Origin: a virus
Lineage: Duplodnaviria > Caudoviricetes
IMG/VR virus record: IMGVR_UViG_3300043220_000070
Span: 1-64,000 of that record
Strand: one strand, 5' to 3'
DNA length: 64,000 nucleotides
Shown one piece after another: positions 2,652 to 14,930 of this stretch. The stretch's first letter is position 1; the number at the start of each line of letters is the position of its first letter. The position numbers were made by a program, and so were the translations under genes. The notes beneath the pieces were generated by a model. It did not search any database. It worked only from the letters and a program-made list of their open reading frames with translations, and was not told the DNA's origin.

Positions 2652-3269
2652 TTACTCTGTTGGCGTACAGTCGGGTGGGGCGTCCGTTTCGGTAGTGAAC
2701 AGCTCGGGGTTTACTTGAATGGCGCCTAACCCATGGCGCTGGGCCATCTCGTGGCGGGCCTCCACACCTTCGTTTGAGGAGGGGTCGAAAGAGGGAGGCG
2801 TGTCGTCGCCCGCCCACTCATAAGTCTGTACCCAGATGTCACCGTCACACGGGCAGTCGCTCTTGTGTGGGAATCGACCAATCAGGAACTGTACAGGTAG
2901 ACCCCCTTCAGTGACACCGCGGATATCCACCCCACAATCAGGGCAGAAGAGCCGCGTCACTACCTCCCGGGCGGCCGTAGTGGTGAGCTGGTCGTCGACG
3001 ACCACACGAATGAGGGAGTCAACAGGAGGAAGCTCCCCAGGTTCGCTGACCTCGTAGAATAGTGAAGCCCGTAGCGCTTGCGGGTGCTTCCCAACATAAT
3101 GGTCAGCGTCGGCTCTCACTACCCATACCCGCGCTCTATCCCCCCTACCTACGGAGATACGGTCTTTCGCTTGCTCATTCTCCTCTTTCGACATCCATTG
3201 GTTTGAACCGGGGGGGCGTCGGGCCTCCTTTACGGAGAAGACTCGGAGGAGGCAATGCTTTATTTTCAT
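2652..3269 (-). CDS. hypothetical protein with C-terminal CxxC/H-x3-C domain
   Basis: AAGGAG RBS; FCPDC..RGVTEGGLP..GRFPHKSDC..RHEMAQRHG. Confidence 0.75.
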   Translation of the reverse strand: MKIKHCLLRVFSVKEARRPPGSNQWMSKEENEQAKDRISVGRGDRARVWVVRADADHYVGKHPQALRASLFYEVSEPGELPPVDSLIRVVVDDQLTTTAAREVVTRLFCPDCGVDIRGVTEGGLPVQFLIGRFPHKSDCPCDGDIWVQTYEWAGDDTPPSFDPSSNEGVEARHEMAQRHGLGAIQVNPELFTTETDAPPDCTPTE

Positions 3270-4293: not shown

Positions 4294-4317
4294 TTCCAGC
4301 ACCTCCTATTTTTCTCC

Positions 4318-4346
4318 ATTTTAGCATTTTCTCACGTGTCAAGCAA
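4318..4346 (-). promoter_or_regulatory. promoter TTGCTT-N17-TAAAAT with extended -10 (TGn)
   Basis: Motif read directly, upstream of the minus-strand operon. Confidence 0.7.
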
Positions 4347-4484
4347 GGGGTCTAACCATCACATCACCCCCCATCCATACCAACGTCACCGTCCAGCAAC
4401 ATTACCTCACGAACCCACAACCATCCCAGCCTAGACCAGTAGCCCCTACACGCGCACTATGACGGGCGCAAGGCCAGCAACAAT

Positions 4485-4700
4485 GTGTAGTCAGGTACAA
4501 TGGGTTGTGGGTCACAATGGATAAGGCGCACCACCTGGCCCCTCACGCGCGTAAACCCTAGGTGAGTCACAACACATTAGCGCGAATAACCCTAGGTGCC
4601 TCACAATGGGTTGTGGGTGACTACAGGTTTACCGGCCTAGCGCCTACACGAGGGGCATAAACACCTAGTGAGTCACAATGGGTTGTGATACACTAGGGGT
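4485..4700. repeat. iteron/operator cluster A (CACAATGGGTTGTG; GTG-N3-CACAA)
   Basis: Copies at 4496-4509, 4602-4615 and 4674-4687, plus partial AAACCCTAGGTG-N3-CACAA units, in a non-coding gap between divergent operons. Confidence 0.8.
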
Positions 4701-4813
4701 TTACCGGCGTTAGGGTAGGTAGAGGGCTGCACCATCGTTACCCCTTGCAGGAGTCTACGTCTGACGTTTACGTAAAGGTATGAAATTGCCCCCAAGATTG
4801 CCCCTTAGACCCC

Positions 4814-4841
4814 TTCAGGTCGGCTCAAGGGTGCCGATACT
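4814..4841 (+). promoter_or_regulatory. putative phage early promoter TTCAGG-N16-GATACT
   Basis: Same motif and spacing recur at 7092-7119 and 8946-8973. Confidence 0.55.
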
Positions 4842-4894
4842 GAAGCTAGGAAGGCCGCAAGGGTGGCCTAGCACCTTCACAAGAGAATATGAAT

Positions 4895-5212
4895 TGAGGC
4901 ACGTGGGGAGCGGGTGGTTAGACTGCCCAGCTTCACATTGGAGGTAGGAATGAACAACATCGAGCGTATGCAAGCACAAACCGAGGCCCACGCCACATTC
5001 AGGCTTGTGGACGATGGGACACTCGATACGGTTGTACAGTGTACCTACTGCGGGGGTGAGGAGCGGTTCGATTCGCTGGCCCTACTCGACGATGATGAGG
5101 AGATAGACGCTCTAGGCGATAGTGTGGACGATGTACGAAGGCGGCGCGCAATCTCCAGCGCCGAAGCCGACCACGAGTGCGAAGGCTAACCCTTCGCTCC
5201 CCGCGTACCTCA
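4895..5212 (+). repeat. inverted-repeat-bounded unit 1 (arms 4895-4923 / 5184-5212)
   Basis: 29-nt arms, 23/29 complementary (26/29 allowing G-U); encloses CDS 4950-5189. Confidence 0.85.
4950..5189 (+). CDS. small acidic early protein with CxxC
   Basis: GGAGG RBS; FRLVDDGTLDTVVQCTYCGGEERF; ends ...CEG* inside the right repeat arm. Confidence 0.75.
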   Translation: MNNIERMQAQTEAHATFRLVDDGTLDTVVQCTYCGGEERFDSLALLDDDEEIDALGDSVDDVRRRRAISSAEADHECEG

Positions 5213-5268
5213 CCGAGACACGTGGGGAGCGGGGCGTCAGCCCCAGCTTCACATTGGAGGTATACCCA

Positions 5269-5454
5269 GTGATACACCTACTCATAATCGACGGACTGTG
5301 GCACGCAAGGTTCGCGGACGGTACGGAGGGACGTATCCGGGAGCTGTTCGGCACCGATACGCTACCAACGCCCTACAGAGCCCACGTGAAGGCAGAAACG
5401 GTCATGCGGGCGATAGCCAAGCGAAACGTTGGAGCGACAGTAACGGTGGAGTAG
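5269..5454 (+). CDS. 61-aa early phage protein
   Basis: GGAGG RBS, GTG start; WHARF..IRELFGTDTLPTPY. Confidence 0.65.
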   Translation: MIHLLIIDGLWHARFADGTEGRIRELFGTDTLPTPYRAHVKAETVMRAIAKRNVGATVTVE

Positions 5455-5466
5455 GAGGTACAAGAA

Positions 5467-5733
5467 ATGCGACGTATAAGGGTTGACGCCACCACGGTTG
5501 ACCAGCGTACCAACACGGTCGATGTAAAGGTCGAGGGGCCAGCAACATACTACCTGCGCTTCTACGTTGACGGGACGTTTGACGTTTTCGCGAAGGTAGC
5601 GGGCGAGCTCGTGGCTATTGGGGGAGTGGGCACAGATGGCGTAGTGTCCGGCTCCTCCCTAGTGGCCCGCCTGGATAGATTCATACGGGAGTGTGCGCCC
5701 TTCAGTAAGAGTAAGAGTAAGAGCGAGGGCTAA
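5467..5733 (+). CDS. small early protein
   Basis: AGGAGG RBS; ends ...KSEG* inside the repeat arm. Confidence 0.7.
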   Translation: MRRIRVDATTVDQRTNTVDVKVEGPATYYLRFYVDGTFDVFAKVAGELVAIGGVGTDGVVSGSSLVARLDRFIRECAPFSKSKSKSEG

Positions 5734-5756
5734 CCCTTCGCTCCCCGCATGTCTCG

Positions 5757-5990
5757 GAGATGTCTAACGGGCGGGCGGTTAGCCAACTGCCTACTTAGTG
5801 GAGGTATGGTCAATGTTCCGGTCGACGCTGAGCCTTCTACCAACGCTTCGGTTACTGACCCGACGCTGCGGCCAGTGTGACGGCACGCTGGTATCGACAC
5901 CAGCGGCTATCACCATCATCTGCCAGGGGTGTTGGAGGAGTGAGGCAAGCTGCAAGTGCGAGGGTTAGTCCCTCGCCCGTTAGACATCTC
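5757..5990 (+). repeat. inverted-repeat-bounded unit 3 (arms 5757-5784 / 5963-5990)
   Basis: 28-nt arms, 23/28 complementary (27/28 allowing G-U), including a perfect 17-bp match 5757-5773/5974-5990. Confidence 0.9.
5813..5968 (+). CDS. 51-aa zinc-finger microprotein (not in ORF track)
   Basis: GGAGG-N8-ATG; RRCGQCDG..ICQGCWRSEASCKCEG*, with the stop inside the repeat arm. Confidence 0.6.
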   Translation: MFRSTLSLLPTLRLLTRRCGQCDGTLVSTPAAITIICQGCWRSEASCKCEG

Positions 5991-6009
5991 AGGAGTAGGA
6001 GGTAGGACA

Positions 6010-6201
6010 ATGAAAAGCACCGACGCGCAATCCGCCGACTTGAAACGACGGTTACGGACAATACCCGTTACCCCGGCATTGCGGGCAGAGGCAGAAAGAT
6101 TTCCGGTAGAGACTGACGAAGCTATCGAAGAAGTAGAACGGGGCCTTATCGCTGCCCTACCAGGAAGCTACGTTTCCCACGTTCTGAGGAGAGGCGTGTA
6201 G
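6010..6201 (+). CDS. small early protein
   Basis: AGGAGG RBS, 63 aa. Confidence 0.65.
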   Translation: MKSTDAQSADLKRRLRTIPVTPALRAEAERFPVETDEAIEEVERGLIAALPGSYVSHVLRRGV

Positions 6202-6274
6202 AGGCTTTGGCGGATGCTGACCTCAGGTTGGCGGGGGAGACGGGGATACGGAGCCGAAGATTCTAGCAGGCGAG

Positions 6275-6302
6275 GGCTAGCCCCTCACCCATCGGGCATC
6301 TC
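6275..6302 (+). repeat. orphan right-type repeat arm
   Basis: 28 nt, GGCTAG...CATCTC, preceded by GCGAG like the other right arms; no full partner arm found. Confidence 0.65.
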
Positions 6303-6324
6303 AATAGCAGAAGGGAGTGAAGGT

Positions 6325-6582
6325 ATGCAACCCGTCATCGTGGTAATCCGACACCCCGACTTCGAGACAGAAGTCCAACTGTTTGGGGTCGAGGCTCAGG
6401 TGATAGACATCGACATGGGCGCGGGCTTCGATGCTGGCTCATTGCACTCCGACGACCTGCCGCAAGTCAAGGAGTGGGCAGAGCACCTACAGGGAGAGGT
6501 GGCTAGGCTACCGACAGACCATCCGGCCAGGCAGTCAGTCGAGGAGGTGTGCCACACCTTGCTTGAGAGATTCGACCAATGA
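6325..6582 (+). CDS. small acidic early protein
   Basis: MQPVIVVIRHPDFETEVQLFG..VIDIDMG; RBS present. Confidence 0.65.
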   Translation: MQPVIVVIRHPDFETEVQLFGVEAQVIDIDMGAGFDAGSLHSDDLPQVKEWAEHLQGEVARLPTDHPARQSVEEVCHTLLERFDQ

Positions 6583-6674
6583 GCGAGTATTGCAGTAACG
6601 GACAGCACACCCGCTGTCACCCACCACTAGAACAAGGCGGGTGCTCTTGTTCCTGCCATAGAAAGGAATAGAAC

Positions 6675-6923
6675 ATGAGGCACAAGCACAACTGGGTCAT
6701 AGAGCCCGCTACTCAGTCCCGCCGGATGGATAGCGGCGAGGTGGACGGCGAGCTCTACACGCCCCGATGTACGCGGGGCAATCTACACGGCGAATGCAGG
6801 TGTGGAGCGGAAAGGCGCTTCCACCCACTCGCCGGCGGAGCCCTGCTGTTCGGTAGCATAGCGCCGGCCTTTGACCTGGCGTTGGCAGTCAAACCCGAAT
6901 TGGCGGCCGCCACTATCGCCTAG
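6675..6923 (+). CDS. small Cys/His protein
   Basis: RHKHNWVI..ECRCGAER; RBS present. Confidence 0.6.
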   Translation: MRHKHNWVIEPATQSRRMDSGEVDGELYTPRCTRGNLHGECRCGAERRFHPLAGGALLFGSIAPAFDLALAVKPELAAATIA

Positions 6924-6937
6924 AGAGGGGTAAAAGC

Positions 6938-7060
6938 ATGGACTATTGCGGGAGGCTACGGCCTAATGGGGTAGAATATCATCGAGGCCCATTCAAAAAT
7001 GGTCGCTGCGAATCATGCGGCTGGAAGATACGCATAGCGACGACTGCCACCATCGCCTAG
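6938..7060 (+). CDS. 40-aa microprotein (not in ORF track)
   Basis: AGAGGGG RBS; CESCG; ends ATIA* like the preceding gene. Confidence 0.5.
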   Translation: MDYCGRLRPNGVEYHRGPFKNGRCESCGWKIRIATTATIA

Positions 7061-7091
7061 GATGTGAGGGGCTGACCTTTCAGGTTGGCCC

Positions 7092-7119
7092 TTCAGACTT
7101 CAGGCGATAGGCCGATACT
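7092..7119 (+). promoter_or_regulatory. putative phage early promoter TTCAGA-N16-GATACT
   Basis: Repeated motif, followed by TAGAGTAG and an RBS. Confidence 0.55.
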
Positions 7120-7260
7120 TAGAGTAGAGAGGGGTGAAAGCATGACGGTGACGACTGAGATAGACGCGGGCCACATTGTAGCCGTTGACTACGGTTCGCA
7201 AGCGATAGGCGGGAGTGAGGGTTACGCTTCCCTCTACGCCCGCGCAGAGGAGGTGAACGT

Positions 7261-7407
7261 ATGCGTTGTAGGCTATGTGGATGGCTAGTCAAGAAGCTAT
7301 GCTCTAGGGGCGAAACTTGCCCGGCGTGTACCAACGGTCGCCATCCAGTAGGGGCGCGCACCTGGGAGCCTTGCCAGTATGAGGAGGTGACAACATGCAA
7401 GGACTAG
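7261..7407 (+). CDS. 48-aa Cys-rich microprotein (not in ORF track)
   Basis: GAGGAGG RBS; MRCRLCG..CSRGETCPACTNGRH. Confidence 0.5.
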   Translation: MRCRLCGWLVKKLCSRGETCPACTNGRHPVGARTWEPCQYEEVTTCKD

Positions 7408-8773: not shown

Positions 8774-8945
8774 GCTGCACGAGGAGTGCAGTAGGGGAGG
8801 CGGCGGCTCACGCCTTGCCGGTTTCACCCGCCTCCCCTTACACTCCCTCTACAGCGGCGGGGTACGCCCTGCCGCTTCTGGGCCTCTGGTCATGGAGCCG
8901 ATTGCAGGCCGATGCGCTGCGCTAGCCTTTGCATTGGGCTAGGGG

Positions 8946-8973
8946 TTCAGAAGCGGCTGGATGTGTCGATACT
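8946..8973 (+). promoter_or_regulatory. putative phage early promoter TTCAGA-N16-GATACT
   Basis: Repeated motif. Confidence 0.55.
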
Positions 8974-8991
8974 TAGAGTAGGAGGTGAGCA

Positions 8992-9392: not shown

Positions 9393-9740
9393 ATGGCATA
9401 CCTAGACCTACGTGACCTGGCCGACGAGCTAGAGGAGCTAGAACGCCTAGAGGAGCTAGACGCCACAGAACAAGAGCGGCTAGAGGCCCTCCGTGAGCTA
9501 CAAGGAGAGCTGTTCACCGACACGCTGGCCGAGTACGCGGAGCACGAGTCGGCCATGATTCCCGAAGGGGAGTTTGCGGAGTACGCCGAGGAGTTTGCCT
9601 ATGATGTGGGTTATGCCGACCATGCCGACAACAACCCGCTCCACGCCTACATCGATTGGGAGGAGTGGGCGGAGGACTTGAAGTCGGACTACAGGGAAGT
9701 CACGTTCGAGGGGGAAACCTACCTCATGCGGGCGTACTGA
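9393..9740 (+). CDS. ArdA-like antirestriction (DNA-mimic) protein
   Basis: Very acidic 115-aa protein; C-terminal LHAYIDWEEWAEDLKSDY..F.GETYL.R resembles the ArdA C-terminus. Confidence 0.65.
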   Translation: MAYLDLRDLADELEELERLEELDATEQERLEALRELQGELFTDTLAEYAEHESAMIPEGEFAEYAEEFAYDVGYADHADNNPLHAYIDWEEWAEDLKSDYREVTFEGETYLMRAY

Positions 9741-14689: not shown

Positions 14690-14930
14690 AGTGTGACCCA
14701 CAAAACGTGTAGTCAGGCACAAGGGGTTGTGGGTTACAATGGGTTGTGCCTCACAACCGTTTTTGTACCTGAGGAGGTGGCGAAAATGTGTTGTGGGTCA
14801 CAACCCGTTGTGAGGCACCTTTCATTAGCAGTGTAAGTAAGGAGAAGGAATGGGTACAGCAATACAAAGGCTAAACCCTAGGTGGGTCACAACCCTTTTG
14901 CCCCTAAACCCTAGGTGAGCCACAATGGAT
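14690..14930. repeat. iteron/operator cluster B (same family as 4485-4700)
   Basis: 17-bp-period copies at 14718, 14735 and 14752, an inverted copy at 14799-14812, and AAACCCTAGGTG-N3-CACAA units near 14873 and 14907. Confidence 0.8.

Follow-up and report, generated by a model that had tools for sequence, protein, structure and literature searches.

An early operon of an uncultured phage clade is headed by a family of gene-spanning brackets, in which a left and a right repeat arm are complementary to each other across a small gene and co-vary. The brackets were found in the IMG/VR record IMGVR_UViG_3300043220_000070 (Caudoviricetes), a 75,576-bp sequence originating from a marine-sediment metagenome, of which the first 64 kb form the window, and the family extends beyond the window to related contigs. 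We read the arms as long-range helices of the sense early transcript, which would serve as processing and/or stabilising stems and would secondarily guide the exchange of open reading frames (ORFs). The probability of this reading, which is drawn from the sequence, is put at about one half.

Architecture of the Brackets

Three units abut each other at 4896–5211, 5215–5755 and 5757–5990, and an orphan right arm follows at 6270–6302 (left arms are denoted L1–L3, right arms R1–R4 and units U1–U3; all lie on the plus strand). Such a layout had been proposed in a preliminary description of the window, and its arm coordinates and complementarity figures were confirmed when the arm pairs were re-measured. 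The pair of unit 1 (4895–4929/5178–5212) spans 35 nt with 77% complementarity, that of unit 2 (5207–5248/5722–5763) 42 nt with 76%, and that of unit 3 (5757–5784/5963–5990) 28 nt with 82%, including a perfect outer stem of 17 bp. Among the 35 inverted-repeat pairs found at most 700 nt apart in the window, these three rank first, third and fifth by length.

Each arm comprises an outer strand of about 17 nt, which starts with GAGR on the left or ends with YCTC on the right and pairs across the gene, and an inner part which forms a local hairpin. The left inner hairpin, GGGYGG-TTAGA-CYGCCC, is located 10–20 nt before the Shine–Dalgarno sequence, and the right one, GCGARGG-YTARY-CCYTCGC, carries the stop codon in its loop. 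The arms of 28–35 nt delimited in the preliminary description also take in the GGTTAG/CTAACC island, which can be part of a longer imperfect duplex or form a loop–loop contact. Across the 75.6-kb genome, four copies of the right-arm motif GCGARGGYTARYCCYTCRC were found, each of them on the plus strand within 5179–6288 (at 5179, 5723, 5958 and 6270), for 0.04 expected from shuffled sequences.

In unit 1, the outer left arm (GAGGCACGTGGGGAGCG, 4896–4912) pairs with the outer right arm (CGCTCCCCGCGTACCTC, 5195–5211) over 17 positions, with one C.A and one U.G. Its inner left hairpin GGGTGG-TTAGA-CTGCCC (4912–4928) is part of the minimum free energy structure of the isolated unit, and the motif is kept in the related contigs L024, L025, L027 and L046. 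Its inner right hairpin GCGAAGG-CTAAC-CCTTCGC (5179–5197), with the stop codon of the first gene (g1) in the loop, is predicted with a pair probability of ~0.9, in agreement with the earlier suggestion that the GCGA(A/G)G preceding each stop can form a competing local hairpin. The left arm of unit 2 (5215–5244) associates the outer strand GAGACACGTGGGGAGCG with the hairpin GGGGC-GTCA-GCCCC, and its right arm (5723–5755) the hairpin GCGAGGG-CTAAC-CCTTCGC with the outer strand CGCTCCCCGCATGTCTC. In unit 3, the left arm (5757–5791) consists of the outer strand GAGATGTCTAACGGGCG and the hairpin GGCGG-TTAGCCAA-CTGCC; it forms a perfect 17 bp with 5974–5990 (pair probability ~1.0), within the right arm (5958–5990) made of the hairpin GCGAGGG-TTAGT-CCCTCGC and the outer strand CGCCCGTTAGACATCTC. 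The fourth right arm, R4 (6270–6302), had already been recognised as an orphan. It is non-coding and consists of the hairpin GCGAGGG-CTAGC-CCCTCAC (probability ~0.98) followed by CCATCGGGCATCTC, and no partner above background was found for it (best −24 kcal/mol; background minimum −25.5).

Units 1 and 2 are near-duplicates arranged as direct repeats, with 85–100% identity between L1 and L2 and 86% between R1 and R2, and these repeats would permit unit loss or duplication. A 21-nt leader with the ribosome-binding site (RBS), CCCAGCTTCACATTGGAGGTA, stands behind the left arm as an exact duplicate before g1 and g2a (at 5242–5262 in unit 2). No Rfam family matched the window at gathering thresholds, and a permissive search of 4400–7300 returned only a chance microRNA-like match on the hairpin formed by R1 and L2.

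Covariation of the Arms Across the Gene

Relatives were recovered through a helicase search, neighbouring conserved proteins and homologues of the gene g2b, and six contigs drawn from several assemblies and archives proved informative. L024 (helicase at 86%) has the arms of unit 1 around a different ORF, followed by a g2a homologue without a left arm. L025/L026 (helicase at 68%) has a different arm core and measures 127 nt from end to end, with no ORF enclosed; the two arms of L025 pair with each other. L027 (helicase at 57%) has another arm core, around a 106-amino-acid ORF. In the more distant L056, another core forms a perfect 17 bp, a second unit shows hairpins only, and an extra right-arm copy is found upstream of the promoter-like motif described below. 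A further core is seen in L064, from another sediment study, where it forms a perfect 24 bp at −57.7 kcal/mol and encloses an ORF unrelated to that of L066. The latter, from the same study as L064, has L064-type arms with one compensated G-C to U-A change, enclosing a g1 homologue. Finally L046, recognised by a 78% homologue of the protein W_6675, has a left arm and no convincing right arm.

Eight distinct units from six phage contigs were compared: U1–U3 of the window and those of L025, L027, L056, L064 and L066. Standard pairs are formed by 96% of the 136 outer-stem cells, and 14 of the 17 outer-stem columns show two-sided change. When partners were deranged, 64% of the cells paired on average and 79% at most; sliding the register by 1–3 positions, in six of the units, left 33–59% paired. 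Selection on left–right complementarity across the gene is therefore well supported.

The outer 20-nt duplexes reach −32 to −40 kcal/mol between cognate arms versus −10 to −30 between non-cognate ones, and the cognate assignment ranks first or second among 720 permutations. Units 1 and 2, otherwise near-duplicates, differ in a compensated manner (GAGG/CCUC versus GAGA/UCUC). Isolated units fold as a closing stem with a left and a right hairpin, with z-scores against shuffled sequences of −5.36 (unit 3) and −2.66 (unit 1). The right arm has no complete left arm after it in L024, L027, the first unit of L056 and L064, and in L056, L064 and L066 it is followed only by a partial left-arm copy, which lacks the outer strand. 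Since these single-unit relatives possess a left and a right arm across the gene, the conserved object is the bracket, and not a hairpin at the junction of two units.

The arms are confined to one locus per genome. A generic scan for inverted repeats with at least 16 matches out of 17, 60–800 nt apart, found 9 of them in 272 kb from elsewhere; five were looked at, which were AT-rich or within ORFs and not analogous to the arms. The left-arm pattern scans of IMG/VR returned the known relatives only, plus unrelated small terminator-like hairpins, and an exact-pattern scan with the right hairpin gave 19 single matches, apparently due to chance, which were not inspected. A helicase-based scan of metagenome contigs yielded only short contigs without the early region.

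Two unusual arm copies were observed in the relatives. A half-decayed unit without ORF (L0/R0) is located at 3190–3360 in L056, upstream of the promoter-like motif and within a palindrome cluster, and its R0 and the left arm of unit 1, which follows 229 nt downstream, show 95% complementarity. At 932–1046 in L066, an inverted copy (~97% identical) of the right arm and of the 3′ end of the bracketed gene interrupts the g2b homologue, with a joint that coincides exactly with the arm's outer end. This L066 tail could reflect either a genuine rearrangement at the arm or an assembly or library chimera.

A Proposed Gene-Closing Stem in the Early Transcript

We infer that the arms act as RNA, in the sense transcript, and not as DNA. 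The promoter-like motif lies upstream of all brackets, which are on the coding strand and, save for the last codons, do not overlap ORFs. Their placement in untranslated spacers, their link to the RBS leader and to the stop codon, and a G.U intermediate of the right hairpin seen on the sense strand only are further indications. This intermediate concerns stem position 5, which is A-U in R1, G.U in R2 and G-C in R3, a series that is readable on the sense strand only. In 4 of 6 units, the sense duplex energy is slightly better than the antisense one. Moreover, arm sequences are diverse and their pairing is nevertheless preserved, which suits a helix and not a DNA-binding protein.

In the proposed mechanism, the RNA would start at the promoter-like site around 4812–4849, and its 5′ outer strand of ~17 nt would pair with the 3′ one across the cistron. 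The inner parts would fold locally, one hairpin just upstream of the RBS and the other over the stop codon, so that each cistron or cistron pair would be closed into its own multibranch domain. The helix of 17–24 bp, possibly lengthened by stacking on the inner hairpin, would provide a site for double-strand-specific processing or stabilisation. After a cut by the host RNase III, the freed cistrons would keep their 5′ and 3′ ends paired; without a cut, the stem would still insulate the folding of the cistron and shield its ends. The arms, as the sole conserved DNA around variable ORFs, could double as homology patches, and through the RecA-like and Mre11/Rad50-like machinery of the phage, the ORF lying between the RBS and the right hairpin could be replaced, deleted or duplicated. 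Such swapping would explain why unrelated proteins share arm-encoded …EG* ends. An RNA panhandle around each early cistron was one of the two interpretations put forward in the preliminary description, and it is the panhandle itself that is best supported here, by covariation, sense orientation and isolated-unit folds.

Several points weigh against this reading. The covariation evidence comes from 8 units of a small clade, and the assignment of a strand, like the choice between RNA and DNA, rests on context and inner parts only. The outer stems of the 8 distinct units have G.U and A.C equally often (5 versus 4). The sense-strand excess of G-U pairs reported earlier (10 versus 3) keeps its direction, with 10 versus 4 in the window arms, and is weaker than stated; over six units that are partly dependent it amounts to 20 versus 9, arising from inner parts and related units. 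By the standard of classical RNase III substrates, a stem of 17 bp is short. The only sequencing run listed as containing 4750–6350 is the source DNA metagenome, with no RNA run. Incomplete copies are also found, namely the left arm alone in L046, the right arm alone in R4 and the hairpins without outer stem in the second unit of L056, and the additional right arm that precedes the presumed promoter in L056 is not predicted by a purely transcript-level model. Lastly, the predicted RNA ensemble of 4846–6340 combines L1–R2 with a local R1–L2 hairpin at 99%, together with L3–R3 at ~100% and R2–L3 at 0%. The earlier claim that each arm pairs across its own gene is thus upheld by covariation, by the relatives and by the fold of L3–R3, whereas folding energy favours L1–R2 plus R1–L2. 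As folding energy alone leaves units 1 and 2 undecided, the arm assignment was decided by the relatives.

The same ensemble raises the question of whether the local hairpins between cistrons, each made of a right arm and the next left arm, might be the functional elements, acting as T7-like RNase III sites or as U-less terminators, the across-gene pairing being a by-product of common palindrome ancestry. T7 early mRNA is indeed cut at local hairpins, and the R1–L2 hairpin (28 nt, 75% complementary, 3-nt loop) is predicted at 96–99% at equilibrium. The second junction does not follow this scheme, however, as the R2–L3 duplex is poor (−34.7 kcal/mol versus −48.7 and −53.8 for the cognate pairs) and its pair probability is 0. 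The compensated difference between units 1 and 2 favours L1–R1 and L2–R2, the brackets of L024, L027, L056 (first unit) and L064 have no complete adjacent partner arm, and the two arms of L025 pair together. Functional junction hairpins are thus quite unlikely.

Stop Codons and Bracketed Genes

The genes g1, g2a, g2b and g3 were called in agreement with those of JGI, and all four are on the plus strand, like g4. Unit 1 encloses g1 (4950–5189), a 79-residue ORFan ending with ECEG* and without Pfam or PHROG match. In unit 2, g2a (5269–5454, 61 residues) is 40% identical to the product of L024 698–985, which is outside any bracket there, and g2b (5467–5733, 88 residues) ends with KSEG*. Unit 3 contains g3 (5813–5968), whose 51-residue product has two CxxC motifs and ends with KCEG*. 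The next gene, g4 (6010–6201, 63 residues), is unbracketed, with no left arm between R3 and its RBS. None of the bracketed and neighbouring small proteins has a match in Pfam or PHROGs, and all are ORFans.

As noted previously, three proteins end with EG* and their stops fall inside the right arm: the reading frames of g1, g2b and g3 extend through the right hairpin's 5′ half and terminate in the loop. The g1 homologue of L066 (33% identity, E = 7e-11), inside a bracket with a different arm core, ends with …HDCSLPD* versus …HECEG* for g1. The …SKSEG end is likewise missing from the g2b homologues of L064, L065 and L067 and from the interrupted L066 copy; none of these homologues is inside a complete bracket, the L064 and L066 copies coming after a partial left arm only, and L065 and L067 show no arms. 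The last codons of g1 and g2b thus belong to the arm and not to the gene. In 8 of the 10 right arms checked, a CTAAC/YTARY pentamer immediately 5′ of the outer right strand contains or adjoins the stop codon (window 5187, 5731 and 5966; L024 651; L027 1702; L064 ~676; L066 ~723; L056 ~4021). The first unit of L056 has retained the CTAAC loop with a stop codon 12 nt upstream, and the pentamer itself therefore seems to be conserved.

This position of the stop codon has a bearing on another possibility, namely that the stems remain uncleaved and switch translation or stability in the manner of hok. The closed form of such a 5′–3′ fold-back would be stable and poorly translated, and would be opened by the terminating ribosome or by 3′ trimming. 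With the stop in or beside the pentamer, a terminating ribosome has to open the right hairpin together with some of the outer stem, and the left hairpin is placed 10–20 nt 5′ of the Shine–Dalgarno sequence. Gene-spanning 5′–3′ pairing with covariation is established for the hok-family mRNAs. The fold-back of hok mRNA (fbi/tac) likewise joins both ends of a small-protein mRNA through a covariation-supported helix, which governs stability and translation; hok is, however, monocistronic and encodes a toxin, with an antisense partner, whereas the present units are arranged in tandem in an operon, with neither evident antisense RNA nor toxin signature. The Shine–Dalgarno sequence does not look specifically sequestered, its predicted unpaired probability being 0.34–0.55 versus a mean of 0.37, and the first unit of L056 retains its CTAAC loop with the stop codon 12 nt upstream. 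A switch of this type is considered fairly unlikely.

Turnover of the Enclosed ORFs

The ORFs are replaced within the arms. The DNA of the window and that of L024 are 95% identical as far as the RBS (4870–4946) and 86% identical from the right hairpin onwards (5181–5217); nothing is alignable in DNA between 4946 and 5181, and the enclosed proteins compare with E = 0.07. L064 and L066 have different ORFs inside the same arm type, and the bracket of L025 looks emptied of its ORF. Variation is also seen within the source metagenome, where contig depth is ~125–146 up to the left arm and 46 just beyond it, several contigs branch at 4894–4946 and a minor contig replaces 4946–5190. This depth drop and this minor contig imply that at least two to three related phages sharing the leader and the left arm coexist in the sample. 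Homologous recombination at the conserved arms would be a simpler explanation of ORF exchange, and the RecA-like and Mre11/Rad50-like genes, taken with the ORF turnover, fit such an exchange.

An alternative would be a mobile or recombination system at the DNA level, with the units as cassettes or elements akin to MITEs (miniature transposable elements with inverted repeats), moved, excised or inverted via their arms in the manner of attC sites, of Gin/Hin or of terminal inverted repeats. The inverted-repeat geometry of the arms, some of which end with TG…CA, is in line with this, as are the ORF content varying inside identical arms, the empty unit of L025 and the lack of G.U strand bias in the outer stems. 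It would also account for the decayed extra unit of L056 in the operator region upstream of the promoter motif, and for the end of L066, where inverted right arm and gene end break exactly at the outer end of the arm. No such enzyme was found, however. Extending to the complete 75,576-bp genome the earlier remark that no recombinase is encoded in the window, family-model searches for the tyrosine recombinase/integrase (PF00589, positive controls) and for the resolvase/serine recombinase (PF00239) gave no match, and the 25 Pfam families met most often in 100 ORFs include no transposase. No target-site duplications were seen in the flanks of the window, L024 and L027 units, and besides the single arm locus per genome, the IMG/VR pattern scans, leaving aside the 19 right-hairpin matches apparently due to chance, gave no other arm-bearing contigs. 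Arm cores vary between units and would each demand a separate DNA-binding specificity, bracketed genes have the same orientation in all seven contigs, no strand-switch joints were found among the source metagenome contigs, and the L066 tail may be a chimera. The decayed unit of L056 and the L066 tail keep a DNA-level process alive at low probability; as the explanation of the brackets it is distinctly improbable.

Cassette shuffling, the second interpretation of the preliminary description, thus retains the ORFs that differ within identical arms and the empty L025; its attC analogy fails and the genome lacks the recombinase. The array does resemble integron cassettes by its tandem promoterless small ORFs and by the 57–59-nt imperfect palindromes at its junctions, whose ends resemble RYYYAAC/GTTRRRY (the spans of 59 and 57 nt given previously are correct). 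In contrast to integrons, however, there is no integrase, pairing takes place across the gene, and single units lack a second attC half. The attC-like cores proposed at GGCTAAC/GTYAGCC do not strictly fit either, with G at a Y position in GGCTAAC and C at an R position in GTCAGCC/GTTAGCC. An integron cassette array was rejected on these grounds. A MITE or transposon with terminal inverted repeats was discarded in view of the single locus per genome and the absence of target-site duplications, and an invertible segment of the Gin/Hin/Cin type in view of the absent serine invertase, the single orientation and the lack of strand-switch joints. Archaeal bulge–helix–bulge processing was dropped as well, the stems being uninterrupted over 17–24 bp and the recombinase being of the bacterial RecA type.

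Leader, Promoter-Like Motif and Source Genome

A promoter-like motif, CCTTCAG-N17-GATACT..CTAG (4812–4849, plus strand), heads the first early operon and probably serves as its promoter. All relatives have a common leader, in which the CCTTCAG-N17-GATACT motif is followed by a hairpin, by …AGAATA-GGAAT and then by the left arm; the motif precedes the arms in L024, L025, L027, L046, L056 and L066. The 5′-leader hairpin, of the GGCCGCAAGGGTGGCC type and followed by AGCACCTTCACAAGAGAATA, lies at 4850–4875 on the plus strand and is conserved, as aligned in the window, L024, L025 and L046. No sigma-70-like promoter was detected in 4300–7300, and the promoter-like motif itself is unlike the sigma-70 consensus. 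The one terminator-like site of this interval is on the minus strand, outside the arms.

The motif is repeated along the window, heading three successive early transcription units on the plus strand (CCTTCAG-N17-GATACT-(N)-TAG at 4812–4849, ~7090–7127 and ~8945–8981), and its 3′ part CGATACTnArnsTAG has plus-strand copies at 4835, 7113 and 8967. A repeated motif that differs from sigma-70 promoters may point to the host promoter type or to a phage-specific factor. Long local hairpins at 7052–7108 (27-nt arms, 3-nt loop) and 8868–8960 (20-nt arms, 53-nt loop) sit directly before the second and third copies, overlapping their upstream part, and have equivalents at 2755–2858 and 3929–4035 in L024. 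They could mark the ends of operons or act as additional double-strand processing sites. Palindromes of the CACAATGGGTTGTG type are clustered in the non-coding DNA between divergent operons (4486–4715) and recur in a cluster 10 kb downstream (14690–14890). The relatives have their own variants (L027 1060–1160; L056 3080–3160 and 3395–3409), and these palindromes are likely operator or origin sites.

The ends of the record share a 127-bp terminal overlap, and the genome was treated as complete in whole-genome searches. Early and replication genes are on the plus strand (~4.9–41 kb) and structural genes on the minus strand. The Pfam sweep of 100 ORFs identified PolA, a DnaB-like helicase, RecA-like and Rad50/Mre11-like proteins, three HNH endonucleases and an SU10-type capsid protein. 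No GenBank phage matched the window at the DNA level, and the DNA polymerase is less than 26% identical to any of theirs, which means that there is no close cultured phage. A family-model search of the complete genome found no phage-encoded RNase III; the model for the T7-type RNA polymerase had no match either, a weak negative since its control also matched nowhere. No transfer RNA or transfer-messenger RNA was found. At ~9393–9740 on the plus strand, a 115-residue early ORF has a weak match to the anti-restriction protein ArdA in the JGI precomputed hits, which fits an early region encoding counter-defence functions.

Comparison with Known Systems and Significance

The brackets are closest in logic to the stems of ribosomal RNA (rRNA) operons, to the T7 RNase III sites and to the PeSLs of T4-type phages, and they are a member of none of these groups. 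In rRNA operons, the flanks of 16S and 23S RNA pair over the mature RNA and are RNase III substrates. Complementary flanks around a product, kept by compensatory change, within a polycistronic transcript and with helices of about two turns, are likewise found here. The product is, however, an mRNA cistron of 50–150 codons with variable content, the stems have 17–24 bp with flanking hairpins and their cleavage is only proposed, and there is no sequence or Rfam similarity. With the early T7 sites (R0.3–R1.3), the brackets have in common structured intercistronic elements in an early polycistronic RNA, which would separate cistrons and leave protective stems, as well as a junction, R1–L2, able to fold as a local hairpin. 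Each T7 site is a local hairpin that contains an internal loop, whereas pairing is here across the gene; a local stem-loop between cistrons can form at R1–L2, and cannot at R2–L3 or in single-unit relatives.

PeSLs are promoter-early/stem-loop cassettes through which modules are shuffled in T4-type phages (PMC2839356, PMC4122927). They share with the brackets short conserved regulatory repeats around small ORFans in a hyperplastic early region, with an exchange that would here, too, be homology-driven and recombinase-independent. Replacements and indels with breakpoints at the repeats are indeed observed between close relatives (window versus L024, L064 versus L066, and the empty L025). PeSLs are, however, direct repeats of a sigma-70 promoter and a terminator, whereas the arms contain neither, are mutually inverted and co-vary.

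A bolder proposal goes one step beyond the gene-closing stem. The brackets might be "expression sockets", conserved RNA frames made of the leader hairpin, the RBS, the stop-codon hairpin and the closing stem. Early host-takeover ORFs would be exchanged as units between co-infecting phages, and a filled socket would be excised from the polycistronic RNA as an mRNA with paired, possibly ligatable ends. This is unlikely as a whole; if true, it would associate a dedicated RNA-processing architecture with cassette exchange, without described phage counterpart.

It is mainly in their early regions that phages carry unknown genes for host takeover and anti-defence, whose gain, loss and correct expression are poorly understood. 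The design of the brackets is close to that of the insulators of synthetic biologists. If the gene-closing stem is confirmed, a gene-spanning type would join the short list of phage elements for mRNA processing or stability, alongside the T7 RNase III sites and the PeSLs. Paired arms with a stop codon in a hairpin loop would then provide a sequence-independent signature for early accessory genes and exchange boundaries in metagenomes. A stem that is kept while its ORF is replaced would mean that these phages conserve an expression frame rather than a gene.

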